A stretch of 64,000 nucleotides of DNA from a bacterium (GCA_037127815.1 JBAXXP010000001.1:104174-168173); one strand, 5' to 3'; positions 6,384 to 64,000 are shown, counted from the first letter of the stretch. Notes: generated from the sequence alone by a model not told the origin. Made by a program: numbers and translations.

Positions 6384-6414
6384 ATAATTTATTTTACTTT
6401 GCGTTTCACGCTGA

Positions 6415-28766: not shown

Positions 28767-28767
28767 T

Positions 28768-29316: not shown

Positions 29317-29328
29317 ACCTATTTTTTA

Positions 29329-29799
29329 TTACTTAGCTTCAATTATACCAGTTCCTGAAATTGTTATTGTTTTTGAATATGACGGTGTACCAACAACAAT
29401 AGTGCCGGTTGCATTTGGTGCTCCAGTAATCTTTGCAAAGTCTACTTCATTTTTATGTGACGAAAGATTCACACTTGAAATCTTTATATCAGTTTCCAAT
29501 TCGTATGTCAGTATGTTGTTTCCACCAGCTTTTGTAACGCCAGAAAACATAATTACAGTTGAGGATGAAAAAGATACCCCATAAGACGAATCATTTTTTC
29601 TATTAAGGGACATGTTTTTAGTCTTTTCTATTGTTGAAACGACTGAATCAACATCCTTTTCTATAGCCTTCTTTTCTCTAATATTAAAATAAACTTTTGC
29701 TGAAATACCGGAGATTATAGCGATCAAAGCAATAACAATAATCATTTCCATTAATGTAAAACCAATATTTTTAGTTGTTTTTTTATTTACAGTATCCAT
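29329..29799 (-). CDS. Type IV pilin (GFTLMEMIIVIALIAIISGI N-terminus)
   Basis: canonical prepilin leader plus hydrophobic alpha1 helix, 156 aa. Confidence 0.7.
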   Translation of the reverse strand: MDTVNKKTTKNIGFTLMEMIIVIALIAIISGISAKVYFNIREKKAIEKDVDSVVSTIEKTKNMSLNRKNDSSYGVSFSSSTVIMFSGVTKAGGNNILTYELETDIKISSVNLSSHKNEVDFAKITGAPNATGTIVVGTPSYSKTITISGTGIIEAK

Positions 29800-29802
29800 A
29801 GT

Positions 29803-31014: not shown

Positions 31015-31058
31015 ATTTTATTGATGGAAACCCTACCTACCCCTCAACTTCTATATAT

Positions 31059-43153: not shown

Positions 43154-43155
43154 CA

Positions 43156-43229
43156 TGGTGCGGGATAAGGGAATCGAACCCTTGTCTACTGCTTGGAAGG
43201 CAGTCATTCTACCACTAAACCAATCCCGC
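43156..43229 (-). tRNA. tRNA-Gly (anticodon TCC), CCA encoded
   Basis: GCGGGAT acceptor/ATCCCGC, anticodon stem ACUGC/GCAGU with loop CUUCCAA, T-arm GGGTTCGATTCCC. Confidence 0.85.
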
Positions 43230-43355: not shown

Positions 43356-44531
43356 ATGAACAACATTGAATTTATAATAAGCACCATTATGTCCCTTATA
43401 AAACAGGTTTTTATAATTATAGTTGCAGTTTTTAGTCTATTCACGTCAACACTTTCTATCAGCCCAACCATCCCCTCAGCGAGCAATTTAACAGGTACAA
43501 CATCTGATTACACAAAAGAAAGGGCAAACAAAAATACGAATGATATAATCGCTGTTTTTAACCCACTTACACCAAAGGACGACATAATAAATACGTTAGA
43601 TGGAGCGACAAAGAATATTAAACTCAATCTTTTGAACCTTACAGCTCCAACCTATCAGGTGATTGATGTTCAAAACAACAAAACAACATCAAATATTCCC
43701 GAATCACCCAAAACCTCAACAACAATAGATGCTTTAACAAAACCTCAACAAACAGAGTCTGTTATATCGATAAAATCAAAAGGATCCGAAGAAAGCGTTA
43801 TAAATATCAGATGTGAGAACAAGACCAAGAATACTCTAAAGGTAATAACTGGAAGTGGAATAATAATAAGCTCTTCTGGTTTAATTTTAACAGCAGCCCA
43901 TGTTGCAGCACCAGTTTATGCACAACAACTTAATAACTCATATAACTGTTATGCTCGAATAAACAATCCTGCCTCGGGGAAATACCCCCTTAAGGTAGTT
44001 TACATCGATCAAGCTTGGATAAATAAGTACTACTCTGTATTTGATAAGACTTACACAGAGACAGGTGAACATGATGTAGCAATTCTGAAAATAGATAATT
44101 CAAATTCTAAATTGACCCCAAGTGAAATAATTAACCTTAATAATACTGCCTTTGCGGCCTTATCTACTGAAGTTCCAAGCGTTGGTCAATCTATTGTAAT
44201 AAAATCTTACCCAGCTGATGTTTATGGCAAGTTAGGTGTCTTTACGGTGCTTCCAAGAAAGTCAGAAATAAATTCTATCGACAAGATTACAGACTTTAAT
44301 GGAGGCCTAAGTAGTTTGGACCTAATAGAGACCTCACCAAGCAACCTGGGGCAATCTGGGGCTTCAGGAGGGGGTATTTTTAACAACCAAGGACAACTGA
44401 TTGGAATTATATCTAATATGATTTCATCCAATATTTTGTTTAAAAATAAAGTAAGAGCTACGTCTATTAGATATATGAACGATGAAATAACCAAAAATGG
44501 AGGGAGATCTATCTTCGAAGATAACCTATAG
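43356..44531 (+). CDS. Secreted trypsin-like (S1 family) serine protease
   Basis: signal/TM, TAAHV His motif, HDVAILK Asp, GQSGASGGGIF Ser motif. Confidence 0.7.
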   Translation: MNNIEFIISTIMSLIKQVFIIIVAVFSLFTSTLSISPTIPSASNLTGTTSDYTKERANKNTNDIIAVFNPLTPKDDIINTLDGATKNIKLNLLNLTAPTYQVIDVQNNKTTSNIPESPKTSTTIDALTKPQQTESVISIKSKGSEESVINIRCENKTKNTLKVITGSGIIISSSGLILTAAHVAAPVYAQQLNNSYNCYARINNPASGKYPLKVVYIDQAWINKYYSVFDKTYTETGEHDVAILKIDNSNSKLTPSEIINLNNTAFAALSTEVPSVGQSIVIKSYPADVYGKLGVFTVLPRKSEINSIDKITDFNGGLSSLDLIETSPSNLGQSGASGGGIFNNQGQLIGIISNMISSNILFKNKVRATSIRYMNDEITKNGGRSIFEDNL

Positions 44532-48639: not shown

Positions 48640-49445
48640 ACTAATTTTACTGGGCAGTGATCTGAACCTGTAAAATCATCTTCTATTGTGCATGATTTTA
48701 TTTGATTCATAATTTTCTTCGATACAAAAAAATAATCTATTCTCCATCCAACGTTTCTTTCTCGAGCAAACGTTTTCATGTCCCACCAAGTATAAGCGTC
48801 TATTTTATGTGGGTGTAACTCCCTAAAAACATCTACATACCCAGCTTCAATGAATTTATCAATCCAAATTCTCTCTTCAGGTAAAAATCCTATACTTTTT
48901 TTGTTTTGTTTCGGTCTAGCTAAGTCTATTTCCTCATGAGCCACATTAACATCACCACAAAAAACAACACTTAAGCCTTTGTTTGTAAGCTTTTTACAGT
49001 ATTTCAAAAATTCTTTGTAAAAATCAAGTTTATACTGAAATCTCTCTGGGGCGCCCCCTCCATTTGGAAAATAGCAGTTAATTAGTGCCCACTTATCAAA
49101 AATCAAACATATCATTCTACCTTCCTGATCCATCTTTGGTATTCCAAACCCATACTCAATTTTATTTGGAGTTGTTAATATGTCCTTCATATATATTGCT
49201 ATTCCACTGTATCCTTTTTTGAGTTTAGAATGATCAAAATAACTAACGTAACCTTTAGGGTTTAGTATTTTTTCATCTAACTGATCTACGTGTACCTTGG
49301 TCTCTTGCATACACATAAAATCTGTGTTCTGTTGCATAATTAACTCAAAAGACCCCTTTCTGTGTATAGCTCTTAAACCATTTACGTTCCATGAAATTAT
49401 ACTTAATTGTTTTTTCATTTTATTAAAGACATTATTTTTAATCAT
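48618..49445 (-). CDS. xth: Exodeoxyribonuclease III (AP endonuclease)
   Basis: LSIISWNVNGLRA start, ExoIII/APE catalytic motifs. Confidence 0.9.
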   Translation of the reverse strand: MIKNNVFNKMKKQLSIISWNVNGLRAIHRKGSFELIMQQNTDFMCMQETKVHVDQLDEKILNPKGYVSYFDHSKLKKGYSGIAIYMKDILTTPNKIEYGFGIPKMDQEGRMICLIFDKWALINCYFPNGGGAPERFQYKLDFYKEFLKYCKKLTNKGLSVVFCGDVNVAHEEIDLARPKQNKKSIGFLPEERIWIDKFIEAGYVDVFRELHPHKIDAYTWWDMKTFARERNVGWRIDYFFVSKKIMNQIKSCTIEDDFTGSDHCPVKLVVDNLFQ

Positions 49446-50382
49446 TCTTCTCCTTACGTCCGTGAAAGTTTTTGTGTATGTCTTTTAGGTGTTTGTCTGT
49501 TACGTGTGTATATATTTGTGTCGTGACAATACTTGCATGCCCCAGAAGAGCTTGCACAGAGCGTAAATCGGCTCCATTTTGCAATAAATCTGTTGCAAAG
49601 CTGTGTCTTATAACGTGAGGTGTTACTTTTTTGGAAACCCCAGCACTTATTGAATGGTGTTTAACAAGTCTTTCAACAGACCTTGGTGTTATATCAAACA
49701 TCAATCCACTTGTAATATCAACTCGCTTCTTTAAATACTCCCTCAACGCCTGTTTTGCTGTCTCAGACATAAAAACCACTCTGACCTTGTCTCCCTTACC
49801 TCTAATTGAGAATTCGTCTTTATTCAAATCAAGATCCCTGGGCACGGAACATAATTCTGAGACACGAAGCCCTGTTGAAAACAGAAGCTCCATTATAGCC
49901 TTATCTCTTAGCCTCTTTTTTTCATCTTTCTCATTATCTGGAGATTTCAGTATTCTTTCGAGCTCTTCTATTGAAATATGGTCAATTTGCCTCTCCGGGA
50001 CCTTAGCAAGCTCTATATTATCAGGAGATAATATCTGTAGACCTCTTTTAGCCATATACTTTAAATAAGCCCTTAAGGCAATAAGGTAGTAGTTTTGAGT
50101 CCTTTTTTTAATAAAACTAGTGCCTGTTTTTGTTGCAAATGAACGCCTGTTTAGGAAAAGCCTGTATTCTCTTAGTTTTTCCTCAGTTATGTCTGATGGG
50201 CAATCTGATTTAAGAAATTCTAGAAAAAGATCGAGATATCGATTATAGTTATCGACTGTTTTTAAACTCCTACCTTTTTCAATCTCTGTATATTCTAAAA
50301 AGTGGCGTTTTAAAGTCCCCAAACTCGATTTTACATCGGTCTGGCCACCAAACTTATCATCAACAGAGTTATTGTGCGACAT
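49438..50382 (-). CDS. Tyrosine recombinase XerC/XerD family
   Basis: C-terminal R..HVIRHSFAT..GADLRSVQALLGHASIVTTQIYTHV catalytic box. Confidence 0.85.
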   Translation of the reverse strand: MSHNNSVDDKFGGQTDVKSSLGTLKRHFLEYTEIEKGRSLKTVDNYNRYLDLFLEFLKSDCPSDITEEKLREYRLFLNRRSFATKTGTSFIKKRTQNYYLIALRAYLKYMAKRGLQILSPDNIELAKVPERQIDHISIEELERILKSPDNEKDEKKRLRDKAIMELLFSTGLRVSELCSVPRDLDLNKDEFSIRGKGDKVRVVFMSETAKQALREYLKKRVDITSGLMFDITPRSVERLVKHHSISAGVSKKVTPHVIRHSFATDLLQNGADLRSVQALLGHASIVTTQIYTHVTDKHLKDIHKNFHGRKEKND

Positions 50383-50506
50383 GCTTAAATTATATCACCT
50401 ATATTAGACTGTACAAACCTATTGTACCAACAAGACTACTGAGAATAGCCCTGAACACACAAAAACACTTGCCTGCAATGTTCTTTTGTGATATTATCTC
50501 AAAACC

Positions 50507-50785
50507 ATGTTAACCAAGACAAAGAAACAAAAAATTATAAAAGAAGTGCAGATTCACGCAACTGATACAGGAAGCGCTGAGGCACAGATTGGAATTTTAA
50601 GTAAAAGAATTGAAGAATTAACAAAACACCTTAAGATTCATGCTAAAGATAACCACTCAAGAAGAGGGCTTCTTCAAATGGTTGCAGACAGACAAACACT
50701 TCTAAAGTATTTGCAAAAAAAGAACTCTGCTAGATACGATGTTGTAATCAAGAAACTTGATTTAAAGAAAAAGTCAGCCAACTAA
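50507..50785 (+). CDS. rpsO: 30S ribosomal protein S15
   Basis: 92 aa; HATDTGSAEAQIGILS...HLKIHAKDNHSRRGLL. Confidence 0.92.
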   Translation: MLTKTKKQKIIKEVQIHATDTGSAEAQIGILSKRIEELTKHLKIHAKDNHSRRGLLQMVADRQTLLKYLQKKNSARYDVVIKKLDLKKKSAN

Positions 50786-50994
50786 GCATCTAGTCTAGAC
50801 AATATATAAAAACGCTTTCGTCTTTATATATTTTACAAACTCCGTCAGATTCTATATTTTTTAAATAAGCTACCCAGTCAACATTAGGACAATTTTTAAA
50901 TAATTTTTATAAATAGTTTCATTTGGGCTCATGGTATTTTAATAAAACACACTTAGACCATATTAAATGGTTCATTTTAAGCATAATTTAAGAC

Positions 50995-51702
50995 ATGACA
51001 GTAATTAAACACAAACAACAACGTGTTGGAGTTTTTATTGATACACAAAATCTTTATCACAGCGCAAAGAATCTTTATCATGCGCGAGTAAACTTTGGGG
51101 CAATAATGAAGGAAGCTGTAGCGGGTAGATCATTAATAAGAGCGATAGCCTACGTTATAACAACAGAAAGTGGTGATGAAACCAATTTTTTTGATGCACT
51201 TGGTAAGCTAGGGATAGAAACGAAAACTAAAAATCTTCAAATTTTTAGTGGGGGAGCAAAAAAGGGGGATTGGGATGTAGGTTTGGCGGTGGATGCAATT
51301 AAACTAGCACCAAAATTAGATACAGTTATTATTGCTTCTGGCGATGGAGATTTTTGTCCCTTAGTTGAATATCTACAAACAAACGAGGGTTGCCAAGTAG
51401 AAGTTATTTCTTTTGGAAAATCTTCTTCTCAAAAACTAAAGGAAGTAGCTGATGACTTTATCGACATGTGTGACAGTCCTTCAAAATACGTTATGATGCA
51501 GAACTCACAACAAAACACCGGAGAGAGGGGTAATAGGCAAGAGAGACCTAATAAAGAGATTCAAACGAGACCAAAGAATAATCCTGCACCAAAAAAACAA
51601 TCAAAAAACTCTAACGAAAACAAACCTATTACCACAAACACAAGAAAGGATTTTGATTTTTTTGACCCTGAAGAAAGACCAGATTCAAAATTTGATATAT
51701 AA
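50995..51702 (+). CDS. NYN-domain (LabA-like) predicted ribonuclease with low-complexity C-terminal tail
   Basis: VFIDTQNLY, GDWDVGLAVDAI, IIASGDGDFCPLVEYL motifs. Confidence 0.75.
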   Translation: MTVIKHKQQRVGVFIDTQNLYHSAKNLYHARVNFGAIMKEAVAGRSLIRAIAYVITTESGDETNFFDALGKLGIETKTKNLQIFSGGAKKGDWDVGLAVDAIKLAPKLDTVIIASGDGDFCPLVEYLQTNEGCQVEVISFGKSSSQKLKEVADDFIDMCDSPSKYVMMQNSQQNTGERGNRQERPNKEIQTRPKNNPAPKKQSKNSNENKPITTNTRKDFDFFDPEERPDSKFDI

Positions 51703-51710
51703 TAATATTA

Positions 51711-52835
51711 ATGGATCCAATAGAACAAAAACCAGCACGATTATATCCAAATGCAGATAGGGGATCTGCAGGGATTAACGTCATGCCAACTAGACTTAGT
51801 ACCAACGCTGACGATCCTTCAAAAAAAGAAGGCGACACAAAACCGCTAGTCCACATACAAGATGTATTATCTCAGAAAAAAAACGATACACCTTATAAAA
51901 CTAGTTCCGTTCACACATTCAAAGATGATATGGCGGCAGAATCATCGAAGGGAAATTTTTCTATTGGTAAAATTGTTATGGCCAACAGCAAAAAGGCGCA
52001 TGAAGAGGAAAACAATAATAGAAACGCACAAGATACAAACAACCATATCGGGATTAAGTTAGGTGTAATATTTTTATGCATAATAATAATTGGAGCGCTT
52101 GCATACCTGGGTTTAAACTTAGCAAAAACTCCACAAGAGGTAAGCAACCAGGCAAACCCCACAGAACAGGTTGTGAATGGTATTCTGTACTCCGAACAAA
52201 ACGTAACCTTACCGGTTAACAATAAGACAAAAGCCAACATATACAAAGATATTTCCAAAGAAATATCTTCAGTGAAAATCCCAACAGGCAAGATGAAGTC
52301 TCTTATCTTTACATATCAAGAGGGGGCAAGTACCACACAAATATCTGCCTCTGATTTTTTAAACCTGATTGCACCTAGCGCACCCGACATACTTGTTAGA
52401 AATATTAGGAAAGAATATGTCTTCGGATATTATTCTTACGACACAAGTGAGCCTTTTATTATCCTAAAATCATCAAATTACGACTCTGTATTTGCTGGAA
52501 TGTTAGATTGGGAAAAAAGCATGTATGCAGACTTGGGAGAACTACTAGTAAATAAAGATTCTATATCTGTAGCACCAACAAACATCACATCAGCATCAAC
52601 TACCTCAACAACACCAACACCATCAACAACAGATACCGTTATAAAAACAGAATATGATACAGGTTTTGTTGATAAAATAATTTCTAATAATGACACAAGG
52701 GTTTTGTATAGACAAAATGGTAATATTGCGTTCTTTTATACCTTTTTCAATAAAGATACTGTCATTATCGCAACAAGCGAACAATCACTTCGTGAGATTA
52801 TTTACAGACTTACATCAGGTAAAATAACAAGGTAA
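51711..52835 (+). CDS. Hypothetical single-pass membrane protein
   Basis: 374 aa; one TM (IGIKLGVIFLCIIIIGALAYLGL), T/S-rich; no family recognised. Confidence 0.5.
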   Translation: MDPIEQKPARLYPNADRGSAGINVMPTRLSTNADDPSKKEGDTKPLVHIQDVLSQKKNDTPYKTSSVHTFKDDMAAESSKGNFSIGKIVMANSKKAHEEENNNRNAQDTNNHIGIKLGVIFLCIIIIGALAYLGLNLAKTPQEVSNQANPTEQVVNGILYSEQNVTLPVNNKTKANIYKDISKEISSVKIPTGKMKSLIFTYQEGASTTQISASDFLNLIAPSAPDILVRNIRKEYVFGYYSYDTSEPFIILKSSNYDSVFAGMLDWEKSMYADLGELLVNKDSISVAPTNITSASTTSTTPTPSTTDTVIKTEYDTGFVDKIISNNDTRVLYRQNGNIAFFYTFFNKDTVIIATSEQSLREIIYRLTSGKITR

Positions 52836-52947
52836 TCGTCTTTGGTCATTTGGGTGGCAACGACAGTATTATTTCTTTATAAAAACTTCTGTTTTATTTT
52901 ATAATTACTTTATAGAAACTTTATACCTTATTTGATACAATATACAA

Positions 52948-53301
52948 ATGAACTTAGATATACAAAAATACAAAAACAAATTAGAAAATGAATTAACTAG
53001 ACTGGAAAAAGAAATACAAGAAATATCCCAAAAAGAAAATGGAACAACATGGGAAGCTATTCAAACAGAAACAGGTGAGGATACTGCAGACAGGGAAGAC
53101 GTTGCAGAATCTATTGAGAATTACGCATCAAATGTCTCCATCACTTCTGATTTAGAAAAGAATATTATTGATATAAAAGAAGCATTGTTTAAGATACAAT
53201 CAAACACATATGGTCTGTGTGAAGTGTGCCAGACTGAAATAGAAGAAGATAGATTAGATGTTCTTCCTGAGGCTAGGACTTGCAAGGAACACATGAAATA
53301 G
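52948..53301 (+). CDS. DksA/TraR-family C4 zinc-finger protein
   Basis: coiled-coil N-terminus and C-terminal CEVC...EDRLDVLPEARTCKEH zinc finger. Confidence 0.7.
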   Translation: MNLDIQKYKNKLENELTRLEKEIQEISQKENGTTWEAIQTETGEDTADREDVAESIENYASNVSITSDLEKNIIDIKEALFKIQSNTYGLCEVCQTEIEEDRLDVLPEARTCKEHMK

Positions 53302-53387
53302 TTTTGTTTTCTTGATATTTTTATAACAGTATTTGTCTTTTTATATCCTTGGATTTCTGGTATTTTTTAACCTGTCTCATATAAAAA

Positions 53388-54971
53388 TTGTATATATCTT
53401 GCAAAGGAATAACCCAAGAGGGAATCTTGTGCCAACTTGTTGATGTTGAATTAGACATCTCAAGAGGTCTTTTTTCTTTTTTAATTGTAGGTTTAGCTGA
53501 TAAGTGTATTGGAGAATCCAGGGAAAGAATAATTTCTGCTATTAAAAACAGCGGTTTTTCCTCTCCAAAAACAAAAAATCATAAAATAACAGTCTCACTT
53601 GTTCCTGCCGGTATTAAAAAAGAAGGTGTATTATTAGACCTTCCTATTTCCCTTGCTTATCTTGCTGCCTCTGGAGCTGTAAACAAAAAAGCTTTAGAAA
53701 ACTCAATTTTTATTGGAGAACTTGGCTTAGATGGATCTATCAAGCAAAATAATTCTCTAGCCTCCATCATTAGTTCACTTCACAAGGAACAAACCGGTAG
53801 AGTAAATCCAGTTATTTTATATAGCAATTTTGAAGATAAACAGACCAACCTAATTAAACAATTAAGCATTGAGGGAATAATAATTCATAAATTTACCTAT
53901 TTAATGGACTTAATAGTATTTCTAAATACTGGGGTACAGAACAAAGAAAATGATAGTAAGGGGGTGTTGATGGAAAAAAACCTCATTACAAATATAAGCA
54001 ACGGTGCTAGTAATGCAAATGCAAGCAACAGCACTTGTACTGACATAATTTATGAGATTGATTCTGTTGTTGGACAGGAAAAGGCAAAAAGGGCTATTTT
54101 AATATCAATGTGTGCCGGATATAACATAATAATGGCGGGGCCGCCTGGTGTTGGTAAAACAATGCTAGCAAGAAGTATGCACCAACTTCTTCCCACCCTA
54201 AAACCGGATGAATATATAGAAGTACTTTCCACACACAACAAACTAGAGAGACCCTTTAGATCCCCTCATCATACAAGTAGTTATTCCTCAATCATCGGAG
54301 GAGGGAGTCCTATAAACGCAGGTGAAATTACAAAGGCTCACAAAGGAATTTTATTTCTTGATGAACTACCTGAATTCAACAAAAATATTATTGAATCCCT
54401 GAGACAACCCCTTGAACAGGGGATAATACAAATCAACAGAACAGGTAATACTGTCACATTACCTTGTAAAATTATGTGTGTTTGCGCAATGAACCTGTGT
54501 CCCTGTGGTAACAGAGGTATACCAAAAAAAGACTGCATTTGCAATGGAAACAAAATTAGTATCTATCAACAAAAAGTATCACAACCTTTTTTGGAGCGCT
54601 TTCATGTATCTATAAATTTACCTCACGAGGTTAATCACCATAAAAAAACACTAAAGGCGCCAAATGGCCTTATGGGTTATCAAATGACAAAAACCATAAA
54701 TCATTTTAACAAAATGAGCGTCGCTTTTTTATGGAACGATACTGAATCAGAACTACTTGATGAGAATTCAGAGCGAAGAAGTTTTTCCATGAGAGCTATA
54801 AAACAAATCAAGGATATAACAGAAACCATTTGTCTAATAGACTATATTGAGTCAAACTTGCTTAGTATGCAGTTGCAAACCAGGAATACAGAACTTGATT
54901 CAAAACAAAAACTTATTATCCAAAAGAAACATCTAATTGAAGCCTTCTCCTACAAAAACAACCTCTGGTAA
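53388..54971 (+). CDS. comM: YifB/ComM-family Mg-chelatase-like AAA+ ATPase
   Basis: N-terminal Lon-like domain, Walker A GPPGVGKTM, ChlI-type motifs. Confidence 0.85.
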   Translation: MYISCKGITQEGILCQLVDVELDISRGLFSFLIVGLADKCIGESRERIISAIKNSGFSSPKTKNHKITVSLVPAGIKKEGVLLDLPISLAYLAASGAVNKKALENSIFIGELGLDGSIKQNNSLASIISSLHKEQTGRVNPVILYSNFEDKQTNLIKQLSIEGIIIHKFTYLMDLIVFLNTGVQNKENDSKGVLMEKNLITNISNGASNANASNSTCTDIIYEIDSVVGQEKAKRAILISMCAGYNIIMAGPPGVGKTMLARSMHQLLPTLKPDEYIEVLSTHNKLERPFRSPHHTSSYSSIIGGGSPINAGEITKAHKGILFLDELPEFNKNIIESLRQPLEQGIIQINRTGNTVTLPCKIMCVCAMNLCPCGNRGIPKKDCICNGNKISIYQQKVSQPFLERFHVSINLPHEVNHHKKTLKAPNGLMGYQMTKTINHFNKMSVAFLWNDTESELLDENSERRSFSMRAIKQIKDITETICLIDYIESNLLSMQLQTRNTELDSKQKLIIQKKHLIEAFSYKNNLW

Positions 54972-55036
54972 GCCAGAGGTTGTAAAACAAGAACTTCATC
55001 ACTCTAAATTATAAAGAAGGGTTAGCTTGGTGAATA

Positions 55037-56062
55037 TTAGAATGGATTTCTCCCTCCACGAACCTCAAAGTGCAAGTGAACTCCTGTTGATTGACCTGTG
55101 TTTCCCATTCTTCCTATTTGCTGACCTTTGTTAACATGTGATCCTGCGCTTACTGATGTTGAACTTAAGTGACCATACAAAGTTTGTGTTCCATTGGCGT
55201 GCTTGATAACCACATAATCCCCATAACCTCCATTCCAACCACTATTTTTACTAATGATGACAGTTCCTTCAGCAGCCGCTAATATTGGAACGAAAGCCCC
55301 ACCAAATGAGGCTAGGTCTACACCATTGTGTCCATGAAGACCTTGGGTTCTAACACCACCGTTGACTGGTCTTTTAAAATACCCAGCTAAATTTGAAGAT
55401 GGTTTTGGTGAGGGTTTAACTTTGGTTGGAACCACTTCAATTTCAGCGTTTGGAATTATAATCTCTTGGCCAACAATAAGACCTGCAGACTGGTCTATGT
55501 TGTTGTAACTTATGATTTCAGCAACATCTGACTTAAATTTCTTAGCAAGATCTTCTACATGATCACCTTTCTTTACTGTATATTTAATACCGGTGATTGG
55601 TAAAATAACAATTACCTGATCTGGTTTAAGTTCAGTTCCTGATTTTAGATCATTTGCCCAATAGATAGTATTTGATGTAACGCCAAACATTTTGGCAACC
55701 AGCGCGATAGTATCTCCTTTTCTAACTGTGTAAAGACTAATTTGATCAGAGTTGTTTCCTTCATCAACAAGAGACCCATCTAGGGCGCTGTTTTCATTTG
55801 TGACAGCATAGCCATCAACAATAGACTTATCTTGAGCCGCATTAGCACCAGCCACCTCAGCACTGTTCGCCGCCTCCAACAGATTTATGTTGTTTATATT
55901 TAATTCAGGGTATGCCAAAGCCTCTTCTGTGACAGCCACAGCGTTTGAAGAAAGAACCTTGTTTTGTGAATTACCTAAAATACCAGACTTTACCCAATCC
56001 AAAACACCAAAAACATCCGCTTTAGCATAAAACGGATATATCATTACGGTCAAAACAAGCAA
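55037..56062 (-). CDS. Secreted LysM (x2) plus M23 (LytM) peptidoglycan endopeptidase; start codon uncertain
   Basis: YTVRKGDTIALVAKMFG and YTVKKGDHVEDLAKKFK LysM; M23 HxxxD...HLHFE motifs; in-frame upstream extension lacks ATG. Confidence 0.8.
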   Translation of the reverse strand: MLVLTVMIYPFYAKADVFGVLDWVKSGILGNSQNKVLSSNAVAVTEEALAYPELNINNINLLEAANSAEVAGANAAQDKSIVDGYAVTNENSALDGSLVDEGNNSDQISLYTVRKGDTIALVAKMFGVTSNTIYWANDLKSGTELKPDQVIVILPITGIKYTVKKGDHVEDLAKKFKSDVAEIISYNNIDQSAGLIVGQEIIIPNAEIEVVPTKVKPSPKPSSNLAGYFKRPVNGGVRTQGLHGHNGVDLASFGGAFVPILAAAEGTVIISKNSGWNGGYGDYVVIKHANGTQTLYGHLSSTSVSAGSHVNKGQQIGRMGNTGQSTGVHLHFEVRGGRNPF

Positions 56063-56416
56063 AATTATTGATGTTTTTGTGACCTTTTCTATCGCTCGTC
56101 CTTTTTTATGACGCAGAATTTCTGTAGGTCTGTTTTTAGGATCGAGGTCTTGAGGGGTTATTAAAATAACTTTAGATTAATTGATAGAATTTCTCTGGGT
56201 ATAATAGGGCTTAAAATAAAGCATTATTAGTTAGAACAAACTGTGTACCTATATATGTTAGAGATATTTTGAATCAAAGTCAACGGTTTTATTAAGACCA
56301 ACACAATAGTAAAAATAGGTCAAACGAGATAAAAAAAGGGTACTAGCCAGCTTTGTGATATAGTATTTATACTAAAAATAAAAGTAAATAATCGTAAAAA
56401 TAAATTCAAATTAAAA

Positions 56417-58393
56417 ATGCATCCACAAACACAATCACAAGCATTAACCGGTCTAAATGAAATGCAAAAAGAGGCAGTCACAACACTACATGGACCTCTA
56501 CTTATATTGGCTGGGGCTGGGGCTGGCAAAACAAAAACCGTTACACACAGAATTCTAAACTTAATAGAAAACGGTGTTTCCCCTGAATCAATTCTCGCTA
56601 TTACCTTTACAAATAAAGCCGCTAAGGAAATGCGTGAGCGTGTGGAACATTTAATTGGAAGCAGCAGAGAGATGAATCTACCTATTCATAACTTCTCAAA
56701 GCCTTTCGTATCAACATTTCACTCCCTTTGTCTAAATATATTAAAAGAGTCAGGTGACGCAATTGGCATTCCTCGTAATTTTACAATTTACGACAAAAGT
56801 GATTCCAAACAAGCCATAAGAGAGGCCGTAAACTCACTTGGTTATGACATTAAAATGGTTGAACCTAATAAAATAATGTCTATAATTTCAAGAGAAAAGA
56901 GCAATTTTTCATCTATTGGGGCGTATGAAGCGGTAAATGGAGAAGATCATTTTGGGGCGATAGTAACAGCGGTCTGGAAAAAATATGCTGAGGCACTTTT
57001 TAAAGAAAAAGCTCTTGATTTTGACGATTTATTATATAAAGCGGCTGTTCTCCTTAAAACAAAGCCTGAAATTAGGGCTATGTATCAGAATCGATTCAAA
57101 TTTATTCATATTGACGAATATCAGGATACAAATGGTATTCAATATGAGCTTGCTCGTCTTTTGGTAGGACCTGAACATAATATTGCCGTAGTCGGGGATA
57201 TTGATCAGGCTATTTATAGCTGGAGAGGGGCCAATATAAAGAACATTATGAAATTTGAGACTGATTATCCAGAAGCTAAGGTTATTTTACTTGAAGAAAA
57301 CTATAGATCCACAAAAACGATACTCTCTGCAGCAAATGAAATAATTAAGAAAAACATATTTAGAAAAGACAAGAATCTGTTCACAAACAATGAGGATGGG
57401 GAATTAATAACCCTATATAACGCTTATGATGAGAACGATGAAGCAAATCATGTAGCCAATACATCTAGAGATTTAATAGCTGAAGGCAAAAAAGCGGAAA
57501 AAATAGCCGTTTTATACAGAACAAACTCACAGTCGCGTGCTCTTGAAGAGGCTTTTCTTAGAAAAGGCATAGATTACCAACTCCTAGGAACAAGATTCTT
57601 TGAAAGAAGGGAGGTTAAAGATGTTATTTCCTACGCACGAGCAGCACTTAATCCAGAAAGTCTTGCTGATATAAAGAGAATAATAAACACCCCAGTAAGA
57701 GGAATCGGAAAGGTGACGCTCATTAAGATAATGGCTGATCAAACAGCGGGACTTCCTTCTGCAACAAAACTTAAGGTTGATAACTTTTACGCATTACTAT
57801 CCAGTATTAAGAACCAAATTGAAACACAAAGACCATCGGTTGCAATAAAATTTATTATTGAAAAAACAGGAATAGAGGCAGCACTCAAAGCAGAGAATGA
57901 TAAAGAAGAAGACCGAGTTGGAAACATTAGAGAATTAGTAACACTTGCTACAAGATACGATGACATGCCAGGAAAAGAGGGAATTGAAAAACTTATCGAA
58001 GATGCCGTGCTCGCTAGTGATCAAGATTCTTTAAATGAAAAGACTGCAAAAAATAACGGAACAGGTGTGAAACTTATGACCGTTCACGCTTCCAAAGGTC
58101 TAGAGTTTGATTATGTTTTTATAACCGGACTGGAGCAAGATTTATTTCCAAGTGGTAGATCATCAGAAGGAAAATCCGGAGAAGATCAAGAGGAAGAAAG
58201 GAGATTATTTTATGTTGCCTTAACCCGTGCTCGCACAAAACTTTATTTATCTTACGCTAACATGAGAACAATCTTTGGAAGCAAACAAATCAATTTACCA
58301 TCTGAGTTTATAAAGGACATTAGTGATACACTTATCGAGAGACATGATCAGGAAATATCTGGGGGAATAAAATCTATTTTTATAGATTTCTAG
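56417..58393 (+). CDS. pcrA: ATP-dependent DNA helicase PcrA/UvrD family
   Basis: 658 aa; Walker A AGAGAGKTKT, UvrD helicase motifs I to VI. Confidence 0.9.
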   Translation: MHPQTQSQALTGLNEMQKEAVTTLHGPLLILAGAGAGKTKTVTHRILNLIENGVSPESILAITFTNKAAKEMRERVEHLIGSSREMNLPIHNFSKPFVSTFHSLCLNILKESGDAIGIPRNFTIYDKSDSKQAIREAVNSLGYDIKMVEPNKIMSIISREKSNFSSIGAYEAVNGEDHFGAIVTAVWKKYAEALFKEKALDFDDLLYKAAVLLKTKPEIRAMYQNRFKFIHIDEYQDTNGIQYELARLLVGPEHNIAVVGDIDQAIYSWRGANIKNIMKFETDYPEAKVILLEENYRSTKTILSAANEIIKKNIFRKDKNLFTNNEDGELITLYNAYDENDEANHVANTSRDLIAEGKKAEKIAVLYRTNSQSRALEEAFLRKGIDYQLLGTRFFERREVKDVISYARAALNPESLADIKRIINTPVRGIGKVTLIKIMADQTAGLPSATKLKVDNFYALLSSIKNQIETQRPSVAIKFIIEKTGIEAALKAENDKEEDRVGNIRELVTLATRYDDMPGKEGIEKLIEDAVLASDQDSLNEKTAKNNGTGVKLMTVHASKGLEFDYVFITGLEQDLFPSGRSSEGKSGEDQEEERRLFYVALTRARTKLYLSYANMRTIFGSKQINLPSEFIKDISDTLIERHDQEISGGIKSIFIDF

Positions 58394-58446
58394 ATCTTAA
58401 ATATTGTAAATCAATTAAGAGTTTCAAGCAGAAAAATATATTTCAA

Positions 58447-59355
58447 ATGAAAAATCCAAATTTAAAAAACAACAGAAGAAGACTCACAAAACAAACAGAA
58501 CAAGAAGGTTTCATTTCTTCAGGTGAGCCAGTGGGGGAAACAATGAAGGATTCTGTGTTTGCAAAAAAATCTCTTGGTCAAAATTTTTTAAAGTCCCAAA
58601 AGGCACTCAATCAAATTATTGAGGGTGCTGGTGACCTAAGGGATAAGACAGTCCTTGAAATTGGCCCTGGAATGGGTTCATTAACCGAAAGACTAATCAA
58701 AACCCCCGCAAGCAAAATAATTCTAATTGAGATGGATGATAGGCTAATTCCAATACTTACTGAGAAATTTGCTGATGAAATTAAAAACAAAAGAATGGAA
58801 ATTGTTCATGATGATATTTTAAAAGTAAATTTAAATTCAATTGGTCTTACAAAAGGTAATTACAGTTTGATTGCAAATATTCCATATTACATAACAGGTG
58901 CAATTATAAGAAATATTATTGGTGGTGATATTTATCCAGAAAGAGCTGTGGTTTTAGTACAAAAAGAAGTTGCAGAAAGAATAATTTCTCGTGATAAAAA
59001 AGGAAGCCTATTGTCTATCGCCGTGAAAGCAATTGGCGATCCAAAAATAATTGGCAAGGTTCCAAAAGGTGCCTTTGTTCCATCGCCAAAAGTTGATTCC
59101 GCAATACTATTAATTGATAATATTTCAAAAAAAACATTTGACGAAAGTTCTAAAAAAGAAAAAAGGTTTTTTGATATCCTACACGCTGGTTTTGCACACA
59201 AAAGAAAATTATTGAAGAGCAATTTAAAAGAACATAATATTTTTATTGATGCTGAAAAAGCATTAGAGGTGTGTAATATAAAAAGTGACGCAAGATCTGA
59301 AACATTAACATTAGAACAGTGGAAAAAATTATCATCTCTTGATATACTTTACTAG
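58447..59355 (+). CDS. rsmA: 16S rRNA (adenine1518/1519-N6)-dimethyltransferase with N-terminal extension
   Basis: LGQNFL, EIGPGMGSLTE SAM motif. Confidence 0.9.
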   Translation: MKNPNLKNNRRRLTKQTEQEGFISSGEPVGETMKDSVFAKKSLGQNFLKSQKALNQIIEGAGDLRDKTVLEIGPGMGSLTERLIKTPASKIILIEMDDRLIPILTEKFADEIKNKRMEIVHDDILKVNLNSIGLTKGNYSLIANIPYYITGAIIRNIIGGDIYPERAVVLVQKEVAERIISRDKKGSLLSIAVKAIGDPKIIGKVPKGAFVPSPKVDSAILLIDNISKKTFDESSKKEKRFFDILHAGFAHKRKLLKSNLKEHNIFIDAEKALEVCNIKSDARSETLTLEQWKKLSSLDILY

Positions 59356-60194
59356 TGAAAAATTCTAATTCTCATAATAAAGTTTTAATACTTGGTGCGA
59401 TATGTATTTCAATTCTAGCTGGAGTTCTATCTTACAGAATTGCAGATATTAAAAATCAGCAAGACTTAAATAAGCGACCAAAAATTTCTGATGTTTTTGA
59501 CATAACGGGGGAAAAAGAGGACCCTACAACCAACAGAATTTTAACAGCCATAGATAATTCAAACAATTCACTTGAAGCATTGTTACCCCAAGTTGATCCA
59601 TTCACAATAACAGATAGTGATTCAGCAACAGCGAGAATGGCAAAACAAGTTTATTCTGACTATGTTAATCAAGAGGCAGGAAACTCTGATCTAACCGTAG
59701 CAGACATAGCCCAGAATGCCTTAGGTCAAATGTCAGGTTCAGACATGCCAAGGCTTAAGTATAATTTTAATAATATTACACTAACCGAGAGGTCTGATAG
59801 TGAGGATTTGAGACTTTATGGAAATAATTTTGCGGAAATATATACCAGAAATTTAAACTTAGTCGCACAGAATCAACAAAAATACTCAAATAGCTTAGCA
59901 GCATTGGCGGATGTTTATGAGAATATAAGCAAGGAATTACTCAAAATTAAATGTCCAATCGGTCTTTCTTCGTATCATCTAACAGTTGTAAATAATTTTC
60001 AAGTTCTAGCTGACTCATTTAGATTAATAGACATGCAAAGTCAAGATCCTGTTAAATCTCTTCTTGGTGTTAAATCAGCCAAGGAAGCAGGAGCCGAAAA
60101 CGATCAAATGTTTATAAATATTAGTAAGTATTTTAAAAAGAATGGTATAATTTTTAGCAATAATGAAATAGGGGTGATATGGAACTCCAACTAA
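59355..60194 (+). CDS. Hypothetical membrane-anchored protein
   Basis: 279 aa; N-terminal TM anchor; no family recognised. Confidence 0.5.
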   Translation: MKNSNSHNKVLILGAICISILAGVLSYRIADIKNQQDLNKRPKISDVFDITGEKEDPTTNRILTAIDNSNNSLEALLPQVDPFTITDSDSATARMAKQVYSDYVNQEAGNSDLTVADIAQNALGQMSGSDMPRLKYNFNNITLTERSDSEDLRLYGNNFAEIYTRNLNLVAQNQQKYSNSLAALADVYENISKELLKIKCPIGLSSYHLTVVNNFQVLADSFRLIDMQSQDPVKSLLGVKSAKEAGAENDQMFINISKYFKKNGIIFSNNEIGVIWNSN

Positions 60195-60204
60195 ACAATT
60201 AAAA

Positions 60205-62034
60205 ATGAACAAAACAAAAGACAGCAATATTTGCAAAAAAGATGGTGGAAAAAAAATTGGCATAGTAATATTTTTTTCTTTAGCTTTTTTAATTTTTAGT
60301 TTGGGTGTCGCCAGTGCTCAAACAAATCTTACGGACAACCCACTTTTAAATCTAGCTCCTGAACCACCAGCTGCATCAACTCAAACCAAAGTAGACACAG
60401 CAGGAGCTCCAAAAGCAACAGTAGTTACAGAGGGTGCACCAAAAGCAACAATTGTTGATGAAAGTGGGGCCAGTAACGCTTCAGCAAATAAAAGTAATAC
60501 TGGAACAACGGCGGCCGCACCAGGTGGAGCAGCATCCTCTGTAACATCAACTGGAGCTTGCGTTGGTGGTCAAATGCTTGCAAAACTAATGACAAGCGCC
60601 ATTTCAGCTGGAATAGGCGCCTTAAAAGGAGGAACAATGGGTGTTGCAGAACGTTTGTTAAATGTACCATCAACAAACGCACTAACGGAGTCAGCAAGAA
60701 ACCAGGAAGCTAAATTAAATGCTGAAAATGGTATATTTATTTTTGGTGTTCAAACTGGAATAAGTTGGGATGGAATTGCATACTGTATTGTAAACACAGT
60801 AATAGATTATATTGTTAATTCAACAATTCAATGGGCAAACTCAGGATTCAAAGGAAACCCTGCCTTTATCAGAAACCCTCAGCAATTTTTTAAGGGATTA
60901 GCAGACCAAACAGCAGCACAATTTATTAGAGAGGTTGCGTATAATGAAACAGGTATAGATGTCTGTAAGCCATTTAGAGTTGTAATTGCAACAGGTTTAG
61001 CTGGTAGTTATTCTAATTTAACAAACGGAAAGTCTATACAGTCTTGTTCACTATCACAAATGCAGCAAACAGCAATGCAGTCAGGAAAATATTCAATAAC
61101 AACCCCTACGGATTGGATTGCTTTAACAAAACCTCAGAACAATAAGTATTATTCATATATAAACGCAGGGGAAGAGATGAGCAAAAGAGTTGCTGTCAAA
61201 AATAACACAGCAAGACTTGACCTTTCAATAAACAGAGGGTTTCTTAGTTACAAAAAATGTAAAGATGAAAGCAAGCCAGAAAGCAAAACAAACCCTTGTG
61301 ACACACTAACACCGGGATCAATGATTGCTGATTCGCTGTCTACAACACTAAATATACCAAAAAACAGACTTGTATCAGCTCAAAAATTTGATCAAATGGT
61401 TGATGCGATTGTGAACAACCTGATAAAGATAGCGTTGAGCAAGACGCTTGAAAGCGTAACTGGACAGGCCCCAACAGCCGCTGTTCAATCAGACTATTAT
61501 AATATAGTAGCAAACAACGCAACAGCTTATAATGCTGCAAATATACCTACAGGCCCAGTTGGGCAAGGTGGAACTATAGGTACTTCCGGAGGGCCTCTTC
61601 TTCAGCAAATATTGAGTGGTGCCACTTTTTCTAATAACGATTGGAATACCTATGCCGTACAACAATTGGTTGCATCGGGTATAGCCAACCTACCAGTTAG
61701 TGATGCTTCAACATATTTTTCAGGCGGGGTACCATCAGTTCAAGGATACTTAAGTATAATGGCAGCAATAGCACAAAAAGAATCTGGTGGTCAAGCAAAA
61801 CCAGCAAGATACCAGGAGACAAAGATTGGTAATGGTACCACATATTCAGTGGGATTAATGAGTCTAACACCCGGAGATTTGGGCACAGGAAATATGACAT
61901 ACGATGACCTAGAAGATCCATATAACAACATTAGAATTGCCGTAGGAATTATGGCCAACTTAGTAAGAAAATATGGTGTTCTTCATGGGCCAAACAACAC
62001 AGGATTATCAGCATATTGGTCAACGTTTAGATAG
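60205..62034 (+). CDS. Secreted protein with C-terminal lytic transglycosylase (SLT-like) domain
   Basis: signal peptide; C-terminus AIAQKESGGQ ... VGLMSL ... NIRIAVGIMANL resembles SLT ES.../GLMQ/ NIRAGAAYL motifs. Confidence 0.55.
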   Translation: MNKTKDSNICKKDGGKKIGIVIFFSLAFLIFSLGVASAQTNLTDNPLLNLAPEPPAASTQTKVDTAGAPKATVVTEGAPKATIVDESGASNASANKSNTGTTAAAPGGAASSVTSTGACVGGQMLAKLMTSAISAGIGALKGGTMGVAERLLNVPSTNALTESARNQEAKLNAENGIFIFGVQTGISWDGIAYCIVNTVIDYIVNSTIQWANSGFKGNPAFIRNPQQFFKGLADQTAAQFIREVAYNETGIDVCKPFRVVIATGLAGSYSNLTNGKSIQSCSLSQMQQTAMQSGKYSITTPTDWIALTKPQNNKYYSYINAGEEMSKRVAVKNNTARLDLSINRGFLSYKKCKDESKPESKTNPCDTLTPGSMIADSLSTTLNIPKNRLVSAQKFDQMVDAIVNNLIKIALSKTLESVTGQAPTAAVQSDYYNIVANNATAYNAANIPTGPVGQGGTIGTSGGPLLQQILSGATFSNNDWNTYAVQQLVASGIANLPVSDASTYFSGGVPSVQGYLSIMAAIAQKESGGQAKPARYQETKIGNGTTYSVGLMSLTPGDLGTGNMTYDDLEDPYNNIRIAVGIMANLVRKYGVLHGPNNTGLSAYWSTFR

Positions 62035-62116
62035 GGATAATGTGTAAGTTAAAAATAACCAAAATGGTTAATAAACAACTTATTATTTTTTTAAAGATGG
62101 TATATAATATTAACGA

Positions 62117-64000
62117 ATGAATCTGTTTAAAAACACAACAATAAAAACAAAAGTTTCTTTAGTGGTGGTGTTTTTATTCTTATTTTTAACACACAATAAA
62201 GTGGTATCGGCTAGTCCGTTCGATGACCAAGTTAAAGCTGCAACACAGCAGGAGTCTGGGATTGTTAAAGACTCTAATGGCCAAATAAGTACAGCACCAG
62301 TAGGGTGGTTCTCAACTAACTATGGCGAACTATACAATGCGGCGACCCCTGAAAAAAAAGCATTGATGACTCCAGAGATGTCAAAGTTATATGACACTAT
62401 ATTACCTTTAGAACAACAACTTATTGGTCTAAATAATGATGCGAATGCAGGCAATCAAAGCCAAAGAACACAACTTGCTTTATCAATTGCACAAGCAAAA
62501 GTAGCCTTTAAGACAAACCTTGGTCTTGGTGCTACAACCGAAGAAGCTACTGCTGCACAACTTCAAGGTCAGGTTATTTTTTGTCTAGGTGGATCCGGCG
62601 TCATTCCAACATTGAATATCCCTGGATGTATTGCAATCGTATCATATGAAATACTATATTTAACATCTTGGGTTCTTTGGGTTGCAGCACTGATGTTTGA
62701 TTGGACAATTGCATGGAGCCTTTCCATGCGAGATATTGTTAACAGCTTTGCCGCAATACAATATGGATGGGAGACCTTTAGAAATGTTATTAACTTGTTC
62801 TTCATACTTATTCTTGTTTACATATCTATAGCTACAATACTTCAAATAAGTGGATATGGTTACAAGCAATTACTTGGAAAATTGGTTATTGCAGCTTTTT
62901 TAATTAACTTTAGTATGTTCTTTACTGAAATTATAATAGATCTAAGTAATATGACAGCCCTTGTTTTCTATAAGCAAATAATGGTCGATGCAGATAAGTT
63001 TGCGTCCTTAGGATCAGCTGGAGCACCAGGCGGAGCTTCTACTACAACAAATCAAAACCTTTCTCTTGGAATAATGAATGCACTTGGTTTGCAGACAATT
63101 TGGGGTGTAGGCCAAGCCAATAAAGGACTTGGTACGGCTTCTTCATCACAAACACAAGGAAACAATCCGGCTGTAACTGGGGGAGGAAGTGTTGCTGCAG
63201 CTGGAACTGGTCAGGCTGCTATTATTGACCCTTGGAAGATGACTCTTGTTGGTCTTGGTGGATCTGTCTTCATACTAATCCTGTCTTTTATTTTCTTTGC
63301 TGCTTCCTTAATGTTTATGGTAAGGGTACTTATATTAATTATTCTTATAATTACCTCACCAATCGCATTTTCAGCAAACGTGCTACCTGGTACAAAATTC
63401 TTGTCCGATAAATGGTGGAAACAACTCAATAGTAATGTTTTGTTTGCACCCGTCTACATGGCTTTAATGTTTATTACATTAAAAATGATTTGGGGAGGAA
63501 GTAATCATGTTACAAACTTGCTGTCCTTGCTTGCTAACGAGAGCGCAAGTGGTATGCAATCTATAGTATTCTTCTTGTTACTATCTGCCATGTTGGTTGC
63601 CTGCCTTACTGTAGCGTCATCCTTAGGTGCAACAGGGTCTAAGACAATGCAAAGCTGGGGAAAGAGTGCTAGTTCAGGTGCAAAGAAGTTTGCAATAAAC
63701 AGAGCGGCAGCTCCAGTTAGTTACATAGCAGACAAGGCATCTAAAAATGCTTTTATAGCAAGAAATGCACCTATACTTCTTCAGGGCGCAGACAAACTTG
63801 CTCAAGCAAAACTTGGTGGAACTTCAACATATAGATCTAGAGTTGCTGATGACAAAAAGATGTATCAAGCAAGAGGGGATTTAGTTAAAAATGCAGTTAC
63901 AGGAGAGCTTATCAGAGGTAGAAACGAAAGCTTAAAAGCTTTTGATGATAGAAAGAAAAACCAAACAGAAGCCGGGGAGATGGCACAAAGGAAACAATTA
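62117..64000 (+). CDS. Polytopic membrane protein with signal peptide, VirB6/TrbL-like architecture (partial, continues beyond window)
   Basis: manual translation from ATG 62117 is open to the window end (628 codons); signal peptide, 150-aa periplasmic domain, 6 to 7 TM helices, then K/R-rich soluble tail. Confidence 0.45.
   Translation, partial: MNLFKNTTIKTKVSLVVVFLFLFLTHNKVVSASPFDDQVKAATQQESGIVKDSNGQISTAPVGWFSTNYGELYNAATPEKKALMTPEMSKLYDTILPLEQQLIGLNNDANAGNQSQRTQLALSIAQAKVAFKTNLGLGATTEEATAAQLQGQVIFCLGGSGVIPTLNIPGCIAIVSYEILYLTSWVLWVAALMFDWTIAWSLSMRDIVNSFAAIQYGWETFRNVINLFFILILVYISIATILQISGYGYKQLLGKLVIAAFLINFSMFFTEIIIDLSNMTALVFYKQIMVDADKFASLGSAGAPGGASTTTNQNLSLGIMNALGLQTIWGVGQANKGLGTASSSQTQGNNPAVTGGGSVAAAGTGQAAIIDPWKMTLVGLGGSVFILILSFIFFAASLMFMVRVLILIILIITSPIAFSANVLPGTKFLSDKWWKQLNSNVLFAPVYMALMFITLKMIWGGSNHVTNLLSLLANESASGMQSIVFFLLLSAMLVACLTVASSLGATGSKTMQSWGKSASSGAKKFAINRAAAPVSYIADKASKNAFIARNAPILLQGADKLAQAKLGGTSTYRSRVADDKKMYQARGDLVKNAVTGELIRGRNESLKAFDDRKKNQTEAGEMAQRKQL

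Follow-up and report, generated by a model that had tools for sequence, protein, structure and literature searches.

A VirB4 ATPase is encoded in 2,417 of 3,035 Patescibacteria genomes, where it forms a clade nested in the monoderm MPF_FATA systems, and in the vicinity of virB4 the genes for TrsD, VirB3/PrgI, VirB6, VirB2-like pilins and, in Paceibacteria, VirB1 homologues were reported (Quinonero-Coronel et al., 2025, PMC12102498). In these type IV secretion systems (T4SSs), VirB8 is almost absent, relaxases are rare and a type IV coupling protein (T4CP) is rarely adjacent; the loci lie near dnaA, dnaN, rnpA, rpmH and ksgA, a position typical of Paceibacteria (PMC12102498). Transposon sequencing (Tn-seq) found the homologous cluster of Southlakia epibionticum to be essential for epibiotic growth (Wang et al., 2023, PMC10633639), and, given that neither a coupling protein nor a relaxase is present, it was argued that the Southlakia system, probably not a conjugative one, may export proteins or serve an alternative capacity (PMC10633639). 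Its essential role is not attributable to a functional interaction with ComEC (PMC12857230). Here we describe a comparable locus at the end of a bacterial stretch of 64,000 nucleotides (GCA_037127815.1, JBAXXP010000001.1:104174-168173; hereafter the window), where three tightly spaced plus-strand open reading frames (ORFs), labelled g1, g2 and g3 in their order in the array, occupy positions 59355-64000. We consider it very likely that g1-g3 form the 5' end of a co-directional operon of roughly 13 chromosomal genes for a Patescibacteria-type T4SS, i.e., a monoderm, MPF_FATA-derived machine.

A preliminary description of the window, made from the sequence without database searches, had pointed to three consecutive plus-strand genes running off the window end as a candidate set for conjugation or effector translocation. 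All three ORFs are present as described, and 628 of the 826 codons of g3 lie inside the window. Directly 5' of g1 lies rsmA/ksgA (58447..59355, +), which encodes the 16S rRNA dimethyladenosine transferase, as identified by Pfam RrnaAD on an identical gene; its stop codon overlaps the GTG start of g1 by one base, so that g1, the first gene of the array, is coupled to rsmA in translation and rsmA and the array are probably co-transcribed, while rsmA itself is housekeeping context and no part of the T4SS. The gaps from g1 to g2 and from g2 to g3 measure 10 nt and 82 nt, respectively. Scans for promoters and terminators gave no excess over shuffled expectation and were not used.

The window was extended via public contigs that are 99.99-100% identical to it. 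A protein search located an 826-residue protein with 100% identity to g3 on a JGI contig, and the exact g1 and g2 proteins gave the route to longer contigs. Contig L003 shows one mismatch in 14,646 bases (99.993%) against window positions 49355-64000 and runs 6,194 bases further, L006 matches along 3,877 bases at 100% identity and also runs past the window end, and L001 is 99.9% identical. The order obtained in this way is rsmA, g1, g2 (SLT), g3 (VirB6-like, 826 residues), two genes for proteins of 232 and 115 residues, a 151-residue PrgI/VirB3-like protein, a 218-residue TraC/TrsD-like protein, a 615-residue VirB4 ATPase, and proteins of 153 (membrane protein), 350 (secreted), 253 (with a VirB2-like C-terminal helical hairpin) and 487 residues. 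Intergenic spacing, measured through the gene of the 350-residue protein, ranges from -1 to 84 nt. Extension of the contig, which had been proposed as a check, therefore brings up PrgI/VirB3-like, TraC/TrsD-like and VirB4 genes 2.3-5.4 kb past the window end, and with a T4SS ATPase downstream the secretion reading stands.

The 151-residue protein matches Pfam PrgI with 33.8 bits (cut-off 27) and is VirB3-like, with two hydrophobic segments. The VirB4 protein is recognised by P-loop_TraG (89.1 bits, cut-off 25.8) and AAA_10 (40.4 bits), in addition to a weak CagE_TrbE_VirB match, and tblastn aligned it over 91-95% of its length with Firmicutes plasmid proteins annotated as 'VirB4-like conjugal transfer ATPase, CD1110 family', at 32-36% identity and E-values down to 3e-114. 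It also matches regions of Actinobacteria that carry no or generic annotation, and the identities to Firmicutes and Actinobacteria together range from 28 to 36%. The 218-residue protein, encoded directly upstream of virB4, gives TraC_F_IV/TraC-like matches corresponding to the N-terminal part of TraC. As a one-piece Clostridium VirB4 aligns across both the 218-residue and the 615-residue genes (L003 16814-19378, about 2.2-4.7 kb past the window end), VirB4 is split here, and the two genes correspond to the TrsD and VirB4 pair of the literature. The intervening stop codon as a read-through site or an assembly error was considered and rejected, because all relatives that extend this far have the split as well, and because the two parts, which share one frame here, are in different frames in L002. 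Further downstream, the 253-residue protein combines a signal segment with a C-terminal pair of hydrophobic helices and, judged by these features, is possibly a VirB2-like pilin.

The arrangement was followed in 26 related loci, comprising 25 from a genome scan with the g3 family (alignment A3) and L002. All taxon-named records among the 25 are Patescibacteria, namely Paceibacteria/Paceibacterota, Parcubacteria or Zambryskibacteria, or are labelled Saccharibacteria. Wherever the contigs reach, tblastn recovered the order ComM, M23 (-), PcrA, RsmA, g1, g2, g3, further genes, PrgI, TrsD, VirB4, further genes and YidC (-), and the succession g2-g3-PrgI-TrsD-VirB4 is kept in all of the 26 loci that are long enough to reach it. 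Since the same order recurs in this way, the gene set is no chance arrangement. yidC is found downstream in the 13 loci that reach far enough (L002 and 12 others), and rnpA, rpmH and dnaA were seen after it only in L002; the extension of this organism's contig ends before yidC, so that the yidC-rnpA-rpmH-dnaA flank is known from the relatives. VirB4 of the other Patescibacteria (loci L002 and L008-L031) is 74-96% identical to that of this organism, compared with 49-89% for PcrA and 38-81% for RsmA; the ATPase is hence better conserved than its housekeeping neighbours. In distant loci the identity of g1, g2 and g3 falls to 21-33%, or to 21-53% when the candidate pilin is included. The rest of the window is typical small-genome housekeeping (EF-G, RecJ, PGK, TIM, NusA, RNase Y and the CCA-adding enzyme), and its G+C content is even. 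The array is a core chromosomal system and not an island.

This context bears directly on whether the genes could encode the conjugative T4SS of an integrated mobile element (ICE), transferring DNA to other cells. The closest VirB4 relatives outside Patescibacteria are indeed plasmid conjugation ATPases of Firmicutes and Actinobacteria, the VirB6-VirB3-VirB4 order together with an SLT enzyme matches monoderm conjugation modules, and a tyrosine recombinase gene is located at 49438-50382. The recombinase, however, has the XerC/D domain pair, is 9 kb distant within a housekeeping region and keeps its own synteny; distant relatives have the same housekeeping genes on either side of the array, with yidC-rnpA-rpmH-dnaA following in L002, and there is no G+C shift. 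Neither the window nor its extension gave a VirD4-like sequence in a tblastn search with Clostridium VirD4, and Pfam domains of relaxases or T4CPs were absent from the locus genes scanned and from the called genes of syntenic relatives; across 3,035 genomes, relaxases were found in only 103, seldom close to virB4 (PMC12102498). VirD4 and a relaxase, both suggested earlier as search targets, are accordingly missing from the window and its extension. With no relaxase, no VirD4 and no mobile-element context in the part of the genome covered, conjugation is highly improbable; the type IV secretion gene set of the preliminary description is borne out, and its conjugation option is not.

By profile, fold and hydropathy, g3 (62117..64000, +, cut by the window end) is a polytopic membrane protein of an extended VirB6/TrbL-like type. 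It starts with a signal or anchor segment, which is followed by a helical N-domain (residues ~35-150) and by a membrane core with 6-7 membrane-spanning segments (residues ~168-502, 62618..63622, +; delimited by hydropathy, AlphaFold helices, the alignments A1, A3 and A4, and the TrwI match described below). 3' of the core come a Gly/Ser/Thr/Ala-rich loop of ~100 residues and a charged coiled-coil tail of ~300 residues, and the last 266 residues contain 49 Lys plus Arg and 37 Asp plus Glu. Residues 168-502 hold six hydrophobic stretches, one of which (372-414) is 43 residues long, enough for two membrane passes; with seven spans, the predicted topology would place the Lys/Arg-rich loops and the tail in the cytoplasm. 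Conserved motifs of the core are LINFSMF and R403...S414-P415-x-A417-F418. Hydropathy and the AlphaFold model thus agree with the signal peptide, N-domain, six to seven transmembrane helices and K/R-rich tail that had been noted from the sequence.

The AlphaFold model of g3, built with 39 homologues, has a mean predicted local distance difference test (pLDDT) score of 77, and most of the membrane core lies above 85. When the model was compared with the PDB by Foldseek, chains of TrwI, the VirB6 protein of plasmid R388 (PDB 7o3v, 8rt9 and 8rtd), took ranks 1-3, 5 and 6 with probabilities of 0.63-0.99. When the PDB was searched with a profile of the whole of g3 (alignment A1), coiled-coil matches of the tail dominated the result, and a core-only alignment (A4, 26 genomes) was used next; among 177,635 distinct PDB sequences this profile returned a single match at E <= 10, the 'TrwI protein' 7o3v_F with E = 0.009, which also confirms the identity of the chains found by the fold search. 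TrwI residues 138-262 align with the long hydrophobic stretch of g3 and the S-P-x-A-F region that follows it. Pfam TrbL was matched in 13 of the 39 g3 family members, covering profile positions 39-213 of 215, with best scores of 24.1-24.3 bits against a cut-off of 25.9. PHROGs and NCBIfam scans of g1-g3 gave nothing useful. g3 is moreover located upstream of PrgI-TrsD-VirB4, separated in this organism by two small genes. The VirB6/TrbL assignment made in the preliminary description is therefore supported by the TrwI match and the sub-threshold TrbL matches, and g3, for which an unrelated transporter family had been named as the alternative outcome, falls with VirB6 and with no transporter family. 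Compared with TrwI, g3 is much longer (826 versus 342 residues, 11-13% identity) and adds a helical N-domain of ~130 residues, the loop and the coiled-coil tail, additions in line with what PMC12857230 calls an 'extended VirB6'. TrwI belongs to a diderm system and acts with VirB5, and no VirB5-like protein was recognised in the present locus. We apply this term to g3 and take it to be an extended VirB6, although it stays below the curated family threshold.

g2 (60205..62034, +; identified by ORF, Pfam and hydropathy) encodes a secreted or anchored protein of 609 residues with a conserved trunk and a C-terminal SLT domain, a VirB1-like component. Its N-terminal hydrophobic segment spans residues 18-36, and a low-complexity region is also present. 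The SLT (family 1 lytic transglycosylase) domain occupies residues 517-591 (61753..61977, +) and scores 31.8 bits with Pfam PF01464 (cut-off 21.3); the motifs AIAQKESGG, VGLMSL and NIRIAVGIMANL, quoted earlier as a sign of a C-terminal lytic transglycosylase in a secreted protein, are found at residues ~521-586. Glu526-Ser527, Gly550-Leu551 and the Tyr/Asn region behind them are invariant across 10 SLT-bearing g2 homologues. A single-sequence search of the PDB with the SLT tail of g2 itself came back empty; it took the family profile to hit a solved SLT domain, 6taf (E = 4.5e-5), with the catalytic Glu-Ser aligned. g2 as a full-length VirB1/TraG homologue was considered and rejected, as SLT accounts for no more than the final ~95 residues. 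Like VirB1/PrgK/TraG-type hydrolases, g2 has an SLT domain with the catalytic Glu-Ser, is encoded in a T4SS cluster and is membrane-anchored or secreted; unlike them it contains no CHAP or LytM domain, and its conserved part is a trunk without known relative. Of the VirB1/TraG likeness claimed for this protein, the SLT domain of ~95 residues holds; with CHAP absent and most of the protein being an unrelated trunk, the likeness goes no further.

The conserved core of the trunk, residues ~180-420 (60742..61464, +; delimited by the extents of tblastn high-scoring segment pairs and alignment A5), is the only part of g2 in common with distant relatives by tblastn. Invariant residues are W210, N212, G214, P219, C352, C365 and T369-P370-G371, and the core gave neither a Pfam relative when all members were scanned nor a PDB match in a profile search. 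SLT is carried by 4 of the 23 locus-derived and 11 of the 43 database relatives of g2, and is not the defining feature of the family. Where the trunks of close relatives are 59-70% identical, their final ~170 residues (window 61500-62034) belong to at least three unrelated classes, only one of which is SLT; the exchange was seen across L009, L010, L011, L013 and L034, and neither Pfam nor PDB sequences gave a match to the non-SLT C-termini (L009/L011 and L010/L013). In L034, g2 is present as two paralogues in tandem, of which one has SLT and the other does not. The L034 contig (NCBI JBAXQB010000029.1) also shows a trypsin-like gene joined to the last ~33 codons of rsmA (positions 1-700), and a g3 homologue that stops after 197 residues beside a polysaccharide-synthesis gene on the opposite strand (5650-6592); it is probably a chimeric assembly or a rearrangement.

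A bolder view of g2, which we regard as rather unlikely, is that it represents a polymorphic, surface-exposed 'tool' subunit of the Patescibacteria T4SS and not a housekeeping VirB1 that opens the wall of its own cell. The trunk would dock on the machine and the exchangeable C-terminus would act on the host envelope, perhaps as a lytic transglycosylase here and as something unrelated in sister lineages; the trunk, possibly together with g1, may take over functions of VirB5, VirB8 or an adhesin, none of which can be detected in the phylum. The swapped C-termini of close relatives and the tandem paralogues in one of them fit such a role, as does the fast divergence of exposed parts next to an extremely conserved VirB4. 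If true, the swapping of g2 and the divergence of the exposed parts would represent adaptation to different hosts.

g1 (59355..60194, +; defined by ORF, hydropathy and AlphaFold) encodes a bitopic membrane protein of 279 residues with an N-terminal anchor, a single hydrophobic segment at about residues 9-32, as expected from the membrane-anchored protein described before. Its AlphaFold model shows an all-helical ectodomain (residues ~80-279, pLDDT ~90) with no meaningful fold match in the PDB and no VirB5/TraC-like match. The 39 database homologues are, with one exception, at least 55% identical, and none of them, nor g1 itself, contains a Pfam domain. g1 is found at the same position in 19 of the 26 related loci, with weak similarity (21-28%) in distant ones, and is a lineage-restricted family. 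g1, the bitopic candidate in the window, was considered as the missing VirB8/PrgL-like protein, a further search target of the preliminary description. As the model is all-helical, lacks an NTF2-like sheet and has no PDB match, g1 is not a VirB8-like NTF2-fold protein, and this candidate was rejected; no VirB8-like NTF2-fold protein was found, g1 being the one bitopic candidate modelled.

g1 and g2 might instead form a separate cell-envelope or wall-remodelling pair, with the T4SS genes starting at g3. In favour of such a division, g1 and the g2 trunk resemble no known T4SS component in sequence or fold, the gap between g2 and g3 measures 82 nt, and conserved adjacency alone is weak evidence because the entire neighbourhood, including unrelated housekeeping genes, is syntenic. 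Nevertheless, 23 of 26 loci, among them distant ones in which g2 identity is down to 21-32%, have g2 immediately in front of the VirB6 gene; g1 and g2 share the strand and are only 10 nt apart; and a peptidoglycan hydrolase is a standard T4SS accessory, with VirB1 homologues associated with virB4 in Paceibacteria (PMC12102498). We thus regard a separate pair as unlikely, and treat g1 and g2 as part of the T4SS operon.

For the machine encoded by this operon, gene content, order and conservation are what the data show, and the mechanism below is built on what the homologues are established to do. With the VirB3-like protein as its tether, the VirB4 ATPase would power assembly and transport at a membrane platform formed by g3, which would expose its N-terminal helical domain outside the cell, cross the membrane 6-7 times and probably keep its long charged tail in the cytoplasm. 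The SLT domain of g2 would cut peptidoglycan glycan strands so that the machine or a pilus can cross a wall, g1 and the g2 trunk would be lineage-specific extracellular accessory subunits, and the candidate VirB2-like protein may form a pilus. Because relaxase, coupling protein and mobile-element features are lacking at the locus and the homologous Saccharibacteria system is essential for epibiotic growth, the most likely role of the machine, by analogy, is in contact-dependent interaction with a host bacterium, through a pilus, protein translocation or both, and not in conjugation.

Another possible function is the import of DNA or nucleotides, similar to Helicobacter ComB or archaeal Ced, to feed a cell unable to make nucleotides. 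T4SS-derived importers are established and are discussed in PMC12102498, they lack relaxase and T4CP as the present locus does, and T4SS loci of class ABY1 adjoin comF, recG and radA (PMC12102498). ComM, ComEC and a type IV pilus cluster are also encoded in the present window. In Southlakia epibionticum, however, deletion of comEC abolished competence and not viability, while the T4SS is essential (PMC12857230, PMC10633639), which argues that the essential role is not ComEC-linked DNA uptake; furthermore, no DNA-binding component was recognised in the locus. We therefore consider an importer very unlikely, and contact with the host bacterium remains our preferred function for the machine.

Several points weigh against the assignment as a whole or against parts of it. 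The Foldseek matches between g3 and TrwI are modest, with E-values of 0.1-1.7 and target TM-scores of 0.36-0.51, g3 itself has no Pfam or NCBIfam match, and its relatives stay just under the TrbL cut-off. An hhalign comparison of the g3 family with a single Clostridium VirB6 (CD1112 family) detected no similarity; a one-sequence template is a weak test, and the null result agrees with the report that Patescibacteria VirB6 homologues were mostly recovered with the MPF_T VirB6 profile and not with PrgH (PMC12102498). What links g1 and the g2 trunk to the T4SS is synteny alone. The pilin call draws on the L002 homologue, in which Pfam T4SS_pilin scores 26.1 bits against a cut-off of 26.6, and the 253-residue protein of this organism has no match at E <= 0.1. 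The absence of relaxase and coupling protein applies to the part of the genome covered, i.e., 64 kb plus about 8 kb of extension. Finally, the essentiality data for the homologous T4SS come from a different class, Saccharimonadia.

Upstream of the array, with pcrA and rsmA in between, a LysM-LysM-M23 peptidase is encoded at 55037..56062 (-; Pfam Peptidase_M23 105 bits, LysM 82 bits). It keeps its position in close and distant relatives, as the housekeeping neighbours do, and may act as an accessory enzyme on the cell wall. The earlier description had left open whether this peptidase and PcrA belong to the set, and PcrA, as a housekeeping neighbour, does not. Upstream of ComM, the window encodes a 374-residue protein (51711-52835) without Pfam match above threshold and a 117-residue DksA/TraR-type zinc-finger protein (52948-53301; 28.9 bits, cut-off 24.9), and the identical contigs have both at the corresponding position.

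A type IV pilus gene cluster extends over 28233-32843 (-), with a PilB-type ATPase at 31059-32843 (T2SSE 406 bits, plus MshEN), PilC (T2SSF) at 29803-31014, and two small proteins with an N-terminal methylation motif, of which that at 29329-29799 scores above and that at 28233-28766 just below the Pfam cut-off. Type IV pili are the other envelope machine reported essential in Saccharibacteria. A gene with the ComEC 'Competence' domain (19685-21112, -) is separate from a metallo-beta-lactamase ORF (17730-18944, -), and an Fe/Mn superoxide dismutase gene (18956-19555, +) lies between them; the two could be a split ComEC. In addition, the neighbours of tRNA-Gly (43156-43229) on its two sides are a gene for a Peptidase_C39_2 protein (42083-43207, -) and one for a trypsin-like serine protease (43356-44531, +).

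Taken together, the locus can be compared with two groups of described systems. The first comprises the monoderm MPF_FATA systems, for which pGO1 (trsC-trsD-trsE), pIP501, pCF10 (prgH-prgI-prgJ-prgK) and the C. botulinum plasmid pCDC3875 served as comparison. The order VirB6, PrgI, one further gene and VirB4 is the same in pCDC3875, and shared features of the group are an SLT-domain wall hydrolase in the module, the absence of outer-membrane core components and a VirB4 of 32-36% identity. In contrast to these systems, the present locus lacks VirD4, relaxase and a plasmid or ICE context, its VirB4 is split into proteins of 218 and 615 residues, its hydrolase, encoded upstream, lacks a CHAP domain, similarity between g3 and the CD1112-type VirB6 of Clostridium was not detectable, and a VirB8-like NTF2-fold protein was not found, the tested candidate g1 being all-helical.

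The second group is the Patescibacteria-clade T4SS itself (PMC12102498; Southlakia epibionticum SEML1_0006-0019, PMC10633639), with which the present locus shares a chromosomal position beside ksgA/rsmA and, in its relatives, near yidC-rnpA-rpmH-dnaA. Both have a TrsD-like gene directly upstream of virB4, PrgI/VirB3-like and VirB6-like proteins and a VirB1-like hydrolase, the last a feature noted for Paceibacteria; a possible VirB2-like pilin is encoded here as well, the present locus shows no relaxase and no nearby T4CP, and all of its taxon-named relatives are Patescibacteria. Only one candidate pilin gene is present here, compared with arrays of them in Saccharimonadia and Microgenomatia, and no match to any tested component profile was obtained for g1 or the g2 trunk; there is no difference in kind. 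As this T4SS was already described in 2023-2025, the locus is an ordinary example that changes no concept. It adds one more well-resolved case, with the full gene order taken from identical contigs, of a system that is apparently central to the host-dependent life of Patescibacteria, and it provides sequence and fold support for a large unannotated membrane protein of Paceibacteria as an extended VirB6. Beyond the component lists of PMC12102498 and PMC10633639, the gene labelled 'VirB1' is seen to consist of a conserved trunk without known relative and a swappable C-terminal domain, and g1 is, by its fold, no VirB8 analogue; these details of g1, g2 and g3 are leads toward the extracellular parts and the substrate of a machine that otherwise matches the Patescibacteria-clade T4SS in its components and its chromosomal position.

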